A DNA stretch of 64,000 nt from Escherichia coli (lineage in GTDB: Bacteria > Pseudomonadota > Gammaproteobacteria > Enterobacterales > Enterobacteriaceae): the NCBI RefSeq assembly GCF_030013205.1, contig NZ_CP122649.1. The stretch is one strand, 5' to 3'. Position numbers: made by a program. Of the stretch, positions 18,001-24,000 are shown in pieces. The number at the start of each line of letters is the position of its first letter. Positions within the stretch are counted from its first letter, which is position 1.

Positions 18001-21000
18001 CGGGAAAACAAAAAACCGCCACAAGGGCGGAATTTATTAGACGGGAAAGATTTGGTTATACGGTATGTGTCAGGGAGGAAGCAATGAGCCTGTCTGGTAA
18101 CAGTGATTGTAGGGACGCAGACGAAATAACAAGCACCTGATCCAAGTGCGCTACACCTTCGTCGATATGTTGCTGGAATGCCGCTTCAGCTTCACCGCAG
18201 GAGTCCGCTTCGACCAGCATCACCTCTTCCTCATCATCAAACATCATGCGGCCTGAGATAATATACAGTCGGCTTAAGTCTGGGGTATTTACAGCGATGC
18301 CCTGTTAGTTAATCATCATTTTTCTCCGCCTTCAATTTTTAAATTTGTCAGTTCTGCTACGTGTAAAAAACAGCATCAGCCCTGTAAACCCGGACAGGTA
18401 TCAACGTAGCTCATTGGTTTGCCGATCGCGGCGCTCAGGCGAAGGATTTCGCCGATGGAGACGTACCGAAGCATTTCCGAACGCCCGTGTTTCTGGTATT
18501 CATCCACCGACATAGTGCGCCAGTCCTTGTGCGGTGCGGTTTTGCACAACTGCCAGTTGTTGGCAGTGGTCGGGCGACGCAGGACATATACACCCAGCGA
18601 AGGCGTGAGGCCACTGCCGAATGCCTGCTCCACCACAATACGTACTTCAGAGCCGTCGGGGCGTTTCAGTGTCTGAGTAATTTTAGTAATGAGCTGTTCG
18701 GATTCCATACTATTAACCTCGACCGTCAGTTGGGTTGCTGTAGGGATATTTTACCAAAGTCGGCTCTCTGGCTAATAAGTAAGAAGTGATTTTTTTCATT
18801 CATTGAAGTTTCTTTCATATGGAATGAATATTAATTATTTAAACTGACTCGGCCTATTTTAATTATTATTAATCAGGGTATTTAATGTGCAAATTGGCAG
18901 GGCGCTGAATTACCGGGCATCCATTGCCCGGACAGTTTATTAAAAAAACTGATAATGCCCCGCCGGAGAATTACGCCAATTCCTGTGAAGGCATGGTCTG
19001 GCTGAAAAGTTACTTTTCCCGGTTGCCCTGCCTTGATCCCGTATCGTTTATACCGGTCTGCTCTTACATCCTACCTGGGCAGCAGCTGGCTACGGTGATC
19101 GGGTATTAAAATAGAACCGGTCTGTTTTACCGCAGATTCAACGCCCCGCACCTAGCGTAAAATCGCCTTTCCCGGATGCCCTCCTTAGTCGTCCGGCACG
19201 ATGGCGCTACTCCCAGCGATAAGGGGTAAAATAGTCCTCGTTAACAGCAAGAAATTCGGTCAGGGAATGCATCGCCTTCGTGTCATATGCCGTCACAATA
19301 AAACGGTATCCGTCCACCGTTTCGATGTAGCTGATCCCCCGTGGCGTGCAACTGGATTTCACAACTTCCGCCGTCATCATAAACTGCCCTTGCGGAAATT
19401 CCGGTGACAGGTAGATAAAGCCAGTGGTGGCTGATGACGGGTTGGCATTCATCAGCACGCCGTTAAATTGCTTTCCGTGCCGCGCCGGAATCAACGCGCT
19501 CCCCGCTGTCGCCTGAGTCATCAACTGGCGGATCAGGGTTTCCTCTTTATCTGAGCTGTAGGCGCGAACATCATTTTCAGCCCCGGAGCGTGAGTAGACG
19601 CCGACATGAGCAAGACGTCGGTACTCGTTACGCATATAGGCATGACAGGATGCACCGGCTCGCCCCTGAAGAGTGACGCCAAAGTCTTCACATAACATCA
19701 GTACCTGGCGCAGGTTTTTGTCATAGACCGTGGCAGAGAGCGCCAGGTTATAGCTGATGAATGTCAGCTCAAAAACCCGGGTATGTGCGTCACTAAGGTG
19801 TGCCTCCATGCGGATCACTGGTTTCTCCGTCATTGGAAACGGCGTACCGGCCAAGCAGTACGAGGTAACATCGCTAAAACACTCGTCGATCACACTGGCA
19901 ATGACCGTATCGGCGTCAATGACAGCCGGAGCTGGAACATAAATCTGAAACTGTCCTTCAGTGCCCGGTTGGATCAGGACGGGGTATAGACGCGGGGAAT
20001 TGAGTTGTTCGCAGTCGGCATTGATCAGTTCTGTCCAACCGGGTTTTCCGGTGGGAGCATCAAGGCGAAGACCCAGGTTATCGCAGAAGTCGACGATCTG
20101 GCGGGAGTGCTCCACCATCACTGCCCCGGAGAGTGTCAGACCGTGCGTAACCATCTGCATCTCACTCGTCCGGGTCTGGGAGTTCTGGGACCAGGGCTGT
20201 AATGAAAGCGTCGTCCGACTTAAGGAGGGAATGATGGTTTCATTCAGAGGTTCAATAAGCTGGCAATGCGCATACAGCCGGGTGGCGAGGAAGTCAAATA
20301 TGAAGCTTGCCTGTTGTTTTGTGCTGGCCTGAATATAAAACATCGCATCCATGCCTGAATCCCGGGATGAAATACCGAAAAGTTTCATTTTTTACCTTAA
20401 TGGATGAGCGATTTATAATCATGCGCCGACAGGTGGACGTTATGTACGCCATCGTTCCACTCAAAGAATAGCCGATATTTTGAATTAACTCGAATGGAAG
20501 AATACCGGTTTGCGGTCATTCTTAAGCGTTCGTACCGCAAACTACCAGATAACAATTCGCGTTCGTTTTTAACATTATTTAACGTTTCCAGTCTGCATGA
20601 AATCGCATTAATCAGTTCAGCAGGAATGCCTGCCGTGGATTTTCCATTACGGAAAAACTTTTCCAATCGCCTGTCTTTAAATGAATGGATCATATTTTCC
20701 TCCGTAACGAAATGAGTTTAAATAAATAAGAATTAAAAAAGCCTGAATCTAATTTATTACATCCCGAGGATTCTGGCTGCGACCGTCAGTTGTTTATCAC
20801 TTAATGGAAATTTGCGTGATAACGTCGACTTCAGGCTGTTCAAAAAACTGTTCTCGCCGTCTTGCTGCGTGATGGCGTCCACCAGTTCTTGGTGGTTCTG
20901 ACACCAGAGGTTGAACGCGGAAGTCTTTGATTGAACAGCACGTTGACGCTCTGCTGCCTGAGCGGCTGAGATCTTGCGAGCAGCTTCTGGGTATATGCGA

Positions 21001-24000
21001 TACAGTGCAGTCAGGGTGTAACAGGTACGGGTAGTGACCAGGCTATAGCCAGTGGCATTACAGGCAATACAGCGGCTCTTATAAAAGTGATTGCGTTCGC
21101 CACGTCCATTGCATTTATTGCAAGTAACACGGTAAATATATTCCCCGGTGCCTTTTACTGAATCAATACACTTAATCTTAGCGTTATCGATTGCCATTCC
21201 GCTACGGTCAAAGTATTTATCCATTTTTGATTCCTCAGGTTTGGTCTGAAGTAATAATGACAGATTGGCCTCGCTGGCTAATAACCTGAACGAACGTTTT
21301 TTGAAAATAAATCAGGAAGGATGATTGAGATGATTTATATATGCAGGATTCAATTTTAATGGAGGGTATTTTCAGAATTATCTGTTTACAAAAAACGAAA
21401 CAAATCCTAATGAGGCATTTATTGCATCACAATAAAAGTGATTGCTTTTCACTCATTTGAGTAGCGATGCTTAAGTATTTATCCGTTTTAAGGTATAACA
21501 GCAGCGTGATACGGCTCAGGGAATGCCTGTCCGTCACCTTAATGATGCTTTACTTCCGGTTGCCGAAACAGTCCATATGGCTGACATGTATAACACGCAC
21601 GGTCTAACGCAGTTCCGGGGGGTGGCACAGCGGCGTGATGCCGCTTTAATCTGGAAAACGCAGGCATCTACTGGTGCCTCAGGATCGCGGCACTCGCAAG
21701 CTGAAACACCAGAGCCTGTTCGTCTTCCGGCTGTATCGCTCGTCCCCGTCTACAAAACCCGTCTCATCCGCAGGTATCGCTGGCGCACTCCCAGACGGTT
21801 AGAGGCTTTCGGGAACTGCCTGGGTCAAAGAACACCGGCGTTCAGGTAGCTGTTGAAATGGACATCTACACGTTTTTGTTCAAGTGATTCAGTTGTGGTG
21901 AGGGCATAACGGGTAATGCCCTCCCGTGAAGCCCTGAGAAAAGTTACTTTTCCAGGATTAATGCAGTCTTGCTTTTAATATAAATTCAGGGGATATTTTT
22001 TTAAAAAAATACCTGTCGTCAACTTATTAGAAAAGTAAGTCAAAATGCTAGAGTGTTCTCATTCAAAAAGAGGAGAACTAACCATGCCAAAATATTTGTT
22101 ACCTGCCGAGCTTGCGGAAATTGTTTGTGGATTACTGGTGCAACCAGCATTATTGAATGAATTAAAAACACCAGCCACGCATAAAGCATTTATGCAGGAC
22201 ATCGGCGAGCTGGTGGCGAAACATTGCGGCGGTCAAATTGACGGCGTGATCATGCCTGAGGTACGCGATGAAGACAGCCAGGCCGATTACCTGACATCTC
22301 CAGATGAAACCCCTTATATTGTTGTCTCTCCTGGCCAGGACATGCACTCCCTCACAGATAACGTCTGGCGTCATCATGCCCGGGATGGCTGGCTTGACCA
22401 TATCAAAGGCAGTGTCGAAGAAAGCCCTGATGAACTGCCGACCCACAAAGAGTGCGCTGTACGCCGCTACACCCTCCAGCGTCTGCTCCTTCAGGAAGAA
22501 ACCAGCCATGCTAATCTGCCAGTACAGGTGGTACGGATGTGTGAGTACAGCACCGACGATGTTGAGCAGACCGATTCTTCAGCAGAGTTTAACGTCACAA
22601 TGGCGCTCGGTGGTCATGCCATGCTGGCAGTAAAAGATACAGATTCCCGTCTGGTGATGGCCCTGACACTCTTGATTGAAAATGGAGTTCCCTCTGTCCA
22701 CGTTAATGCGGGTGACACTGATCCTTCAGTTCTGCACATCCGGGCAGCTCACGGTGGTCTGGTTCTTTCAACCGACTCCCTTAATCATGATTTCAGTATT
22801 TCGCCCTCTGACCAGTATACCTACGGACGCCCTGGATTATTATTGAAAGCCGCCTACTGATTTATTAATTCAAAATCCGTCATTATTATTTACCCCCATT
22901 TTTCGCCCCTAACTTATGGGGCGAGTATATTTTAAAAAACTTTCTTTCAGGTTATTAGCCAGCAAACTAGAACTGGTAGAATTAATTCATCAGAGAAAAG
23001 GGGACTATCATGGCTAAATTAATTTCGACGCGTGAACTGGCAACAATTATTACTGCATTACTGGTAAAACCAGAATTACTGGGCGAGCTGGATTCCCCAG
23101 AAAAACATCGCGCCCTGATGGAAGATCTGGGGCGTGTTGTGGCAGAGCATTGTGGCGGTAATGTCACTGAAATCGCACTACCGGAGACCGATGGTACGGC
23201 TGCTGAAGGCGCGTTGCAGAATGGCCAGCCCGTCCGCTATCTGGAAACCAAAGAAAGCTCTCCGTATCTCATCGTACACCCTGACGCCTCACTGCCGTCG
23301 GTGACGCAAAACGTCTGGATGCACGCTGATCATGATGGCTGGGAAGAGCATTTCAACGGAGAGACCGATGCCCTGACTCCAGAGATGAGCGAGCAGTTCC
23401 GCCAGCAGGTTTATGCACTGCTGACGCCGGAATCCCATACCACCTCTTCAGAAATGAGACTGACTTTGCAGGACTGGCAACTGGGTGAAGCCGAGATCCC
23501 AGAAGAAGACTGTCAGCCCTACCAGGTGAAGGTGTTAGCAGAAAATAAAAACGTTCAGTGCGAAGTGACGAATGAAACCGGCACCACGTGTTTCGGCCTC
23601 ATTTTGGAGATCGACCGTGGTGTACCGACGCTGCACATTGATACGGGCAGTGATTCACTGCTGCACATTCACGCGGCACATGACGGCCTGGTTCTGACAC
23701 CGGATGCACCGAGCCACAGATTTGAAGATGCTCCTGTAGATCGCTTTTCTTATAACAGCCCGTCCCTGTTGGTGCCTGGGGTGTAACCAGGCAAACTGCC
23801 CAGCGGTATTTTGGCCCCGGGTAAAATTATTCAGAACAGGAGTCAGGCAGATGGGCGATGTTGCCACACTACCACCGAAAATTAACGATGGCGTACTTCG
23901 ACGCTGGAATGCTCGCGGTAAAGCGGATAAAGAGGCGCTGGCCGACTATGGCGTTAGCGTGAAGGAGGAGTGAATTGCGCGAATTACTTGGAATGGCAGG

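Follow-up and report, generated by a model that had tools for sequence, protein, structure and literature searches.

This analysis concerns two small genes in a 64,000-nucleotide stretch of Escherichia coli DNA (contig NZ_CP122649.1 of assembly GCF_030013205.1), the whole of which we call the window. Gene A (20757..21224) and gene B (41905..42612) are both on the minus strand, to which all coordinates written with two dots refer. The window is the backbone of an IncHI1 resistance plasmid: the 5 kb around these genes are 100% identical to pHCM1 of Salmonella Typhi (IncHI1, NC_003384.1), window positions being those of pHCM1 plus 2312, and the same region is present in more than 250 other IncHI plasmids. 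In pHCM1, gene A occupies 18445-18912 (WP_000362161, 'hypothetical protein' in RefSeq) and gene B 39594-40301 (WP_000682872, 'zinc finger-like domain-containing protein'), and among the plasmids of PLSDB an A-like gene was found in 1299 and a B-like gene in 279. An earlier note on this DNA had taken the two products for paralogous zinc-finger proteins of the type of the DnaJ cysteine-rich region (CR), each inside a HigB-like or a ParB-like module. Both reading frames exist where the note placed them. Following the analyses described here, both genes belong to a catalogued but uncharacterised mobile-element family.

Domain layout and homology of genes A and B

Gene A is preceded by a GAGGA ribosome-binding site 7 nt before its ATG and encodes a 155-aa short-form member of a zinc-knuckle/helical family, a strongly basic protein with an isoelectric point (pI) of 9.4 and a net charge of +9.6. 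Its AlphaFold2 (AF2) model, with a mean predicted local distance difference test score (pLDDT) of 95.4, consists of a beta domain (strands 17-21, 26-34 and 60-70) with a Cys4 knuckle at the tip, a long helix at 79-110 and three short motif-bearing helices within 112-153. The N-terminal beta domain with the zinc knuckle, delimited from the AF2 strands as residues 1-70 (21015..21224), starts with a (W/Y)FxRxG motif in which G9 is almost invariant among 61 family sequences. The knuckle itself, placed at residues 35-59 (21048..21122) by the family alignment, PF00684 and Foldseek, reads CNKCNGRG ... CIACNATG and contains two DnaJ-CR-like repeats, one perfect and one degenerate with respect to CxxCxGxG (C35-x2-C38-x-G-x-G and C52-x2-C55-x-A-x-G). 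C35, C38, C52 and C55 are invariant across the family alignment, and the two repeats are predicted to form one Cys4 zinc site. The helical module, residues 112-153 (20766..20891; AF2 helices 112-120, 126-136 and 143-153), carries the motif FLxSL ... LSxKQ, whose F127, L141 and Q145 are conserved in at least 90% of sequences. Unlike the long-form members of the family, gene A does not encode a C-terminal oligonucleotide/oligosaccharide-binding (OB) fold. A variant of the A family (P0004, a cluster of 35 sequences) has C38Y and so has lost a zinc ligand, and may represent a decaying copy or an assembly error.

Gene B encodes a divergent member of 235 aa with the full architecture. Its zinc knuckle, residues 36-55 (42448..42507; CFECGGTG ... 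CVTCNGSK), was located with alignment A4 and a PF00684 match (E=0.001), and again has one perfect and one degenerate repeat (C36-x2-C39-x-G-x-G and C50-x2-C53-x-G-x-K); in alignment A4, C36, C39 and C50 are invariant and C53 is conserved in at least 90%. The helical module, residues 87-133 (42214..42354; NSKFAASIAQQL ... LTVRQL), is covered by AF2 helices over 87-133 and falls on columns 117-168 of the family hidden Markov model (HMM), the same columns as A 102-153, with F108, L122 and Q126 conserved. The C-terminal residues 156-235 (41908..42147) are predicted to form an OB fold of the RPA/SSB/tRNA-anticodon-binding type, and this domain taken by itself is basic (pI 9.1). The AF2 model of B presents the first two modules as in A, a shorter linker, and a five-stranded barrel at 158-234. 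In the Photorhabdus homologue of B (P0026) we noted a C53Y change together with an N-terminus called 25 residues shorter, for which decay or an assembly error is again a possible cause.

The two pairs of cysteines noticed earlier near the start of each protein all lie among residues 1-60, in A as in B, and the motif CxxCxGxG occurs in only these two of the 374 open reading frames (ORFs) of the window (stop to stop, six frames, at least 60 aa). Direct comparison of the two proteins covered this region alone: pairwise BLASTP aligned the Zn/Cys motif with E=0.029, and hhalign of the narrow A and B families gave a probability of 84% over 28 columns of the zinc motif. These narrow sets of relatives, obtained from word-indexed homologue searches, came from IncHI-type plasmids only and were nearly all named hypothetical.

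Matches extending beyond the cysteines were obtained with profiles. Both proteins match phrog_4046 across the zinc motif and the helical block (A, E=5.4e-8; B, E=6.5e-6). We also used an HMM of 82 distant relatives, from which the whole B family, close A-family sequences, fragments and two proteins of giant or multi-repeat type had been left out. A scored 131-133 bits and B 53 bits with this model, and B is colinear with it from the N-terminal strand through the zinc knuckle, a W..H.E motif and the FLxSL...LSxKQ block into the C-terminal domain. Among 752 window ORFs of at least 40 aa, the same model gave E=3.8e-40 for A, 8.9e-16 for B and 0.69 for the next best. The downstream block that the earlier note had described as shared is real: A 125-153 (ENSFLNSLKSTLSRKFPLSDKQLTVAARIL) and B 105-133 (DNSKFAASIAQQLNNNLFLTVRQLESFYST) occupy the same columns of the family HMM. 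Finally, a Foldseek search of AFDB50 with the AF2 model of A found A0A379Y2D5 (E=1.3e-4, probability 1.0), a member of the P0021 cluster that is 87% identical to B. From the phrog_4046 matches, the distant-relative HMM and this structural link it follows that A and B are true but ancient homologues, as had been proposed; they are paralogues or xenologues about 18% identical to each other, with 23 identities in the 131 shared columns of an HMM-guided alignment.

A family shared by phages and plasmids

A HMMER search with the A-family profile against 1.84 billion cluster representatives yielded 95 proteins at E <=0.001. Most of these representatives are 250-290 aa long and match A from residue 1 to about residue 154, followed by about 100 extra C-terminal residues. 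The earlier note, while right to join A with B, had overlooked this wider phage and plasmid family, the full form of which ends in an RPA-like OB fold that B has and A is without. Both A and B give a significant profile match spanning the knuckle and the helical module, both have the four cysteines and the F/L/Q of the helical module, and the C-terminal OB fold of the long form was found in B as well. Conserved family-wide are these four cysteines, several glycines including the N-terminal one, and the F/L/Q residues, and no catalytic-looking motif was seen among the conserved positions of the family alignments. In our reading, the L-S-x-x-Q element would be a hydrophobic staple with a helix-capping box, and so structural rather than catalytic.

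The family is poorly represented in domain collections. No family in Pfam covers the zinc-knuckle/helical/OB proteins, which give only marginal DnaJ_CXXCXGXG matches there, and a Pfam scan over 59 family members returned a single weak match to tRNA_anti_2 (5e-3). Long-form relatives match phrog_30451, 4265, 2319, 27218, 3628, 4095, 4750 and 18425, and in all the modules of the family are shuffled over at least 10 PHROGs, every one of them labelled 'unknown function'. The C-terminus of phrog_4046 is not the OB fold and is a different part, matched in P0097, which has a DUF6011-type Cys motif as its final 34 residues. Some family proteins have the helical module twice. Names given by the sources are mostly 'hypothetical', and the exceptions ('RecJ-like exonuclease' from JGI, 'Chaperone protein DnaJ', 'SsDNA binding protein' and 'replication factor A') are evidently domain-based guesses.

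Jumbo phages of Burkholderia and Caulobacter and a phage of Erythrobacter have members with the full architecture, and T4-like phages of Aeromonas gave matches to the helical module plus the OB fold; the OB domain by itself is far more widespread. In tblastn searches of phage genomes, A found three records and B none, and a long-form member found 241 phage records, most of which align with the OB domain only and were not counted as full family members. The phage members adjoin small hypothetical early genes or DNA-metabolism genes, with no recurrent partner, and none of those examined has a ParB-like or a HigB-like neighbour. A DUF2786/DUF7168 gene occurs near long-form members in two phage-like contigs (L029 9006-9656; L027 371-1138). 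It follows directly downstream in one contig, is 7 kb off and on the opposite strand in the second, and its presence could be due to chance.

Neighbours of the two genes on the plasmid

A gene for a 98-aa HigB-like toxin (20397..20693) is located 63 nt downstream of A, in the position given by the earlier note. It matches phrog_3066, 'toxin of TA system', with E=1.8e-18, its homologues carry PF05015, its own RefSeq name is RelE/ParE family toxin, and the protein has a pI of 10.0. Only 8 nt after it follows the gene for a 393-aa acidic protein (19207..20388; pI 5.3), a candidate partner of the toxin, which has no match in Pfam, NCBIfam, PHROGs or PADLOC and presents a weak internal repeat. Near the HigB-like gene there is no HigA-type helix-turn-helix (HTH) antitoxin, and the coding strand between A and the HigB-like gene has no terminator-like site. 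The HigB-like gene and its downstream neighbour may form an atypical toxin-partner pair.

The trio of A, HigB-like gene and 39x-aa gene is found on one strand, with gaps of 53-63 nt and 8-12 nt, in four plasmid lineages, namely IncHI1, an IncHI2-like lineage (58% identity), a P0012-type (61%) and a P0033-type (37%). At two more distant loci, L023 and L025 (32-35% identity), two to four ORFs split the zinc-finger gene from HigB. In L023 these encode 84 and 218 aa, and in L025 they comprise genes of 83 and 178 aa and a second, disrupted zinc-finger copy. After HigB in these two loci (L023 8121-8342; L025 4233-4454), a 73-aa DksA/TraR-type C4 zinc finger replaces the 39x-aa protein. A locus that stops 1 kb downstream of its zinc-finger gene (L014), which is under the distance from this gene to HigB in L023, is uninformative for the linkage.

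Short forms occur in tandem in L023 (5250-5756 and 5977-6477), and in L025 (1328-1858 and 2073-2573) the second short-form copy is interrupted by a stop. The 84-aa gene of L023 was considered as a split-off OB domain and rejected, the scan showing the tandem second zinc-finger copy instead. The genes flanking HigB in L023 and L025 were also tested as kin of the 393-aa protein and are unrelated to it.

Plasmids with the linkage between zinc-finger gene and HigB share other backbone genes (Big_3 Ig-like, DUF4942 and N6_N4 methyltransferase), and HigB co-diverges with the zinc-finger gene, so that their proximity can be inherited synteny. The proposal that A is a component inside the HigB-like module is not supported by these data: other ORFs intervene in L023 and L025, A is basic like the toxin, and the tightly coupled partner lies downstream and is itself swapped between lineages. 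A is a neighbour of the HigB-like gene, possibly co-transcribed with it, and not a demonstrated component.

Gene B is the third gene of a conserved series. Two genes upstream of it is an orphan ParB-like gene, correctly named as a neighbour in the earlier note, with no adjacent ParA (42827..43903; 358 aa; phrog_1033, E=9.4e-24), whose product has a GHCRYRA motif of the GxxRxxA type and scores 33.9 bits with TIGR00180, under the cut-off of 58.45. This gene is located between the operon of B and a RepHI1A-type rep gene, and the plasmid has its own ParA/ParB pair at window 59420-61677. The 66-aa gene in between (42609..42809) has a stop codon that overlaps the ATG of B (ATGA), and the same 4-nt overlap is found in a 52%-identical relative (L008 5816-6004 and 6001-6717). 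Downstream of B is a 273-aa gene (40801..41622) that stays with B in related plasmids and whose product gave no family match. The 52%-identical relative keeps the order ParB-like, 66 aa, B, 273 aa, and so does Photorhabdus, with an insertion sequence in it.

From this arrangement, B is probably co-expressed with the orphan ParB-like protein. All plasmids with this gene order, which is found beside the RepHI1A-type rep gene, are of the IncHI-type backbone lineage, and because it is kept in this one lineage only, the linkage of B with the ParB-like gene is indistinguishable from inherited synteny. There is no ParA next to the 358-aa ParB-like gene, and B matches no ATPase or ParB family. The idea that B works inside a ParB-like module found no support, its synteny being limited to one backbone lineage and the phage members having no ParB-like neighbour.

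Some other features of the plasmid were observed in the window. Three iteron-like 20-nt direct repeats (AAAAGCATTTG...) at 44302-44386 immediately precede the RepB-family (RepHI1A-type) initiator gene (44438-45313) and reach into its start region. The Rfam scan detected a sok antitoxin RNA at window 1875-2036 on the minus strand (89 bits against a gathering score of 59), which matches the annotated Hok toxin gene of pHCM1, and nothing besides. Over about 25 kb (window 1-21224, minus strand, and pHCM1 211468-217724) nearly all genes are on one strand, and this array, which includes hok/sok, HNH, methyltransferase, DUF3085, DUF957, PAPS reductase family and HigB-like genes, points at the MobI/MobH relaxase-oriT region at pHCM1 201-206 kb. 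The oriT region is about 36 kb away from gene A and about 57 kb away from gene B, and the relaxase operon separates it from both. The annotation of pHCM1 has no ssb gene in the approximately 200 kb that were inspected, 150-168 kb being outside this view.

Proposed function and likeness to known systems

Homology, domain layout, fold classes, distribution and synteny are direct results of this work, and from these we hold with moderate confidence that A and B are anciently diverged members of a non-enzymatic, modular family of binding proteins of mobile elements, and that they are parts neither of a toxin-antitoxin system nor of a partition machinery. The full layout of the family begins at the N-terminus with a beta domain, which carries at its tip a single Cys4 zinc knuckle resembling half of a DnaJ CR. 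It continues with a long basic helix and a helix-turn-helix hairpin that bears FLxSL...LSxKQ, and closes with a C-terminal OB fold of the RPA/SSB/tRNA-anticodon-binding class. Binding of single-stranded DNA (ssDNA), binding of a partner, and a role in establishment or DNA metabolism would be the most likely functions. B, with all three parts, most likely binds single-stranded nucleic acid through its predicted OB fold while its zinc-knuckle/helical half contacts a partner. Expressed together with the orphan ParB-like gene beside the RepHI1A replicon, it would be an accessory factor in DNA metabolism or establishment. A, having lost the OB fold, would keep the strongly basic zinc-knuckle/helical half, and probably performs or modulates the partner-binding or nucleic-acid-binding half of the job alone. 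The family is most likely autonomous, as suggested by the lack of a recurrent partner in phages, the shuffling of modules and the tandem short forms. By analogy, the one-strand array context would also fit plasmid establishment or DNA metabolism.

Several points weigh against this reading. The AF2 model of B is only moderately confident (mean pLDDT 77.7, predicted template-modelling score 0.39), the whole protein is near neutral (pI 6.5), and it is missing the RPK motif that is conserved at the C-terminus of the family. Searches of the literature on the accession, on the motif combination and on IncHI functional screens found no characterised family member. Moreover, a short-form gene is present within 2 kb of a HigB-like gene in every related plasmid with enough flanking sequence, and this constancy keeps a functional tie between A and the toxin under consideration.

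The alternative that fares best, though we consider it a lesser possibility, is that the family consists of anti-defence or host-takeover proteins, binders or decoys that would mask ssDNA intermediates or inhibit a host sensor while a phage infects or a plasmid enters. Phage-type and plasmid-type contexts were the only ones in which family members were found, and there small hypothetical genes of early or accessory regions surround them. The family diverges rapidly, with module shuffling and tandem duplication. Leading-region anti-defence islands are enriched in SSBs, toxin-antitoxin genes, methyltransferases and uncharacterised phage-related families (PMC11541004), and the content of the one-strand array matches theirs, so that by analogy the array may resemble these islands. 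On the other hand, the distances of A and B from the oriT region, with the relaxase operon between, do not favour such a location, PHROGs and NCBIfam gave no known anti-defence family, and there was no PADLOC match, although PADLOC models cover defence rather than anti-defence. This explanation also overlaps with the ssDNA-binding reading and does not exclude it.

We regard it as unlikely that A is functionally tied to the HigB-like toxin. In that case it could be an antitoxin of an unconventional kind, could regulate transcription of the cassette, or could be the chaperone-like third member of a tripartite zinc-finger/HigB/393-aa system. The trio is adjacent on one strand in four lineages, down to 37% identity of the zinc-finger protein, with a coding strand free of terminator-like sites between A and HigB. 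An integrase-bearing insertion in L021 is upstream of the zinc-finger gene and not between it and HigB, and of the genes found within 2 kb of HigB, the zinc-finger short form is the only one common to all the lineages compared. Because of this constant proximity, and because no HigA-type HTH antitoxin was found anywhere nearby, we retain the explanation. However, the ORFs between the zinc-finger gene and HigB in L023 and L025 interrupt the arrangement, and its conservation is explicable as inherited synteny, given the shared backbone genes and the co-divergence. HigB-family antitoxins are normally encoded downstream of higB, as in higBA loci, whereas A is upstream. In addition, A shares the basic character of the toxin (pI 9.4 versus 10.0), in contrast to the acidic downstream partner (pI 5.3), and the family of A is overwhelmingly without a toxin neighbour.

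A combined version, which we hold to be quite unlikely, is that the zinc-knuckle/helical/OB proteins are a widespread, unrecognised and non-canonical class of ssDNA-binding establishment or anti-defence proteins in phages and conjugative plasmids, with B as the IncHI long form and A as a short form recruited to a HigB-like module without HigA. In such a tripartite system A, without its OB fold, would be the conserved upstream partner that neutralises or regulates the atypical HigB-like toxin. If true, this would be a new toxin module, with a DnaJ-CR-like zinc protein as its neutralising or regulating component.

Very improbable is a role of A and B as zinc-finger transcription factors, for example as Q-like antiterminators or as repressors of adjacent operons. 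A is basic and over residues 27-120 matches phrog_127, 'anti-termination protein Q-like' (E=4.4e-4), but this PHROG is matched neither by B nor by eight other family members at E <=0.001, no antiterminator or HTH family of Pfam was found at E <=10, and a helical module that occurs in tandem or joined to unrelated C-termini (DUF6011) is more like an interaction module. Identity as a Q antiterminator was rejected, since the phrog_127 match is not common to B or the other family members. The possibility named in the earlier note as its own refutation, that the cysteine spacing is coincidental and the proteins unrelated, has practically no probability left: it would agree with the pairwise BLASTP and narrow-family hhalign results, confined as these are to the Cys region, and is refuted by colinear matches beyond the Cys motif with an HMM trained on neither A nor B, by the shared phrog_4046 matches and by the Foldseek search that joins the two.

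Resistance to colistin and to multiple drugs has major carriers in the IncHI plasmids, and 67 of 122 IncHI core genes, more than half, are hypothetical (PMC5390554). The present result is a refinement of annotation and not a new mechanism: two hypothetical IncHI genes are now assigned to a defined family, for which a domain layout is predicted. Through this family, plasmid backbones are connected with at least 10 families of phage proteins whose function is unknown. The function of one member, once learned, would annotate many.

Among known systems, the label of a DnaJ-CR-type protein given in the earlier note is justified in that the zinc motif resembles the cysteine-rich region of DnaJ, with CxxCxGxG repeats on a beta-hairpin in both A and B, and goes too far in that only half of a DnaJ CR is present. 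DnaJ has four repeats and two zinc centres, whereas A and B have two repeats each, one of them degenerate, and therefore one predicted zinc site each. The PF00684 matches are marginal (E 0.001-0.018), Foldseek aligned the model of A with DnaJ CRs over 42-58 columns with probability 0.97-0.99 and E >=0.14, and sequence searches of the PDB returned only DnaJ CR fragments (2ctt, E=0.0048). There is no J domain in either protein (no PF00226 match at E <=10 and no HPD tripeptide), no G/F region and no match to the DnaJ C-terminal domain PF01556, and the score with TIGR02349 (DnaJ_bact) is 18 bits against a cut-off of 377. Anti-TRAP (RtpA) is a single-domain protein of about 53 aa, compared with 155 aa for A and 235 aa for B, and its model NF058604 gave 18.3 and 17.2 bits against a cut-off of 65.

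The likeness to HigB-HigA type II systems is that the downstream neighbour of A is a HigB-family toxin; A itself differs from HigA in that it is not an HTH antitoxin (it has no HTH family match), is upstream of higB, is basic, and is split from HigB in two lineages. Archaeal COG1107, 'RecJ-like exonuclease with DnaJ-type Zn finger', comes into the comparison through the JGI name for A-family members. COG1107 proteins have a DnaJ-type zinc finger and an OB fold, a possible parallel to the domain content of the long form, and neither A nor B has a match to the DHH/DHHA1 nuclease domain. With regard to RPA and SSB, B is without a sequence match to SSB (PF00436) or RPA families at E <=10 and without the acidic C-terminal tip, and A has no OB domain at all. 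By fold class, the C-terminal domain of B is nevertheless that of a nucleic-acid-binding OB fold, and the family differs from these proteins in placing it C-terminal to a zinc knuckle and a helical module.

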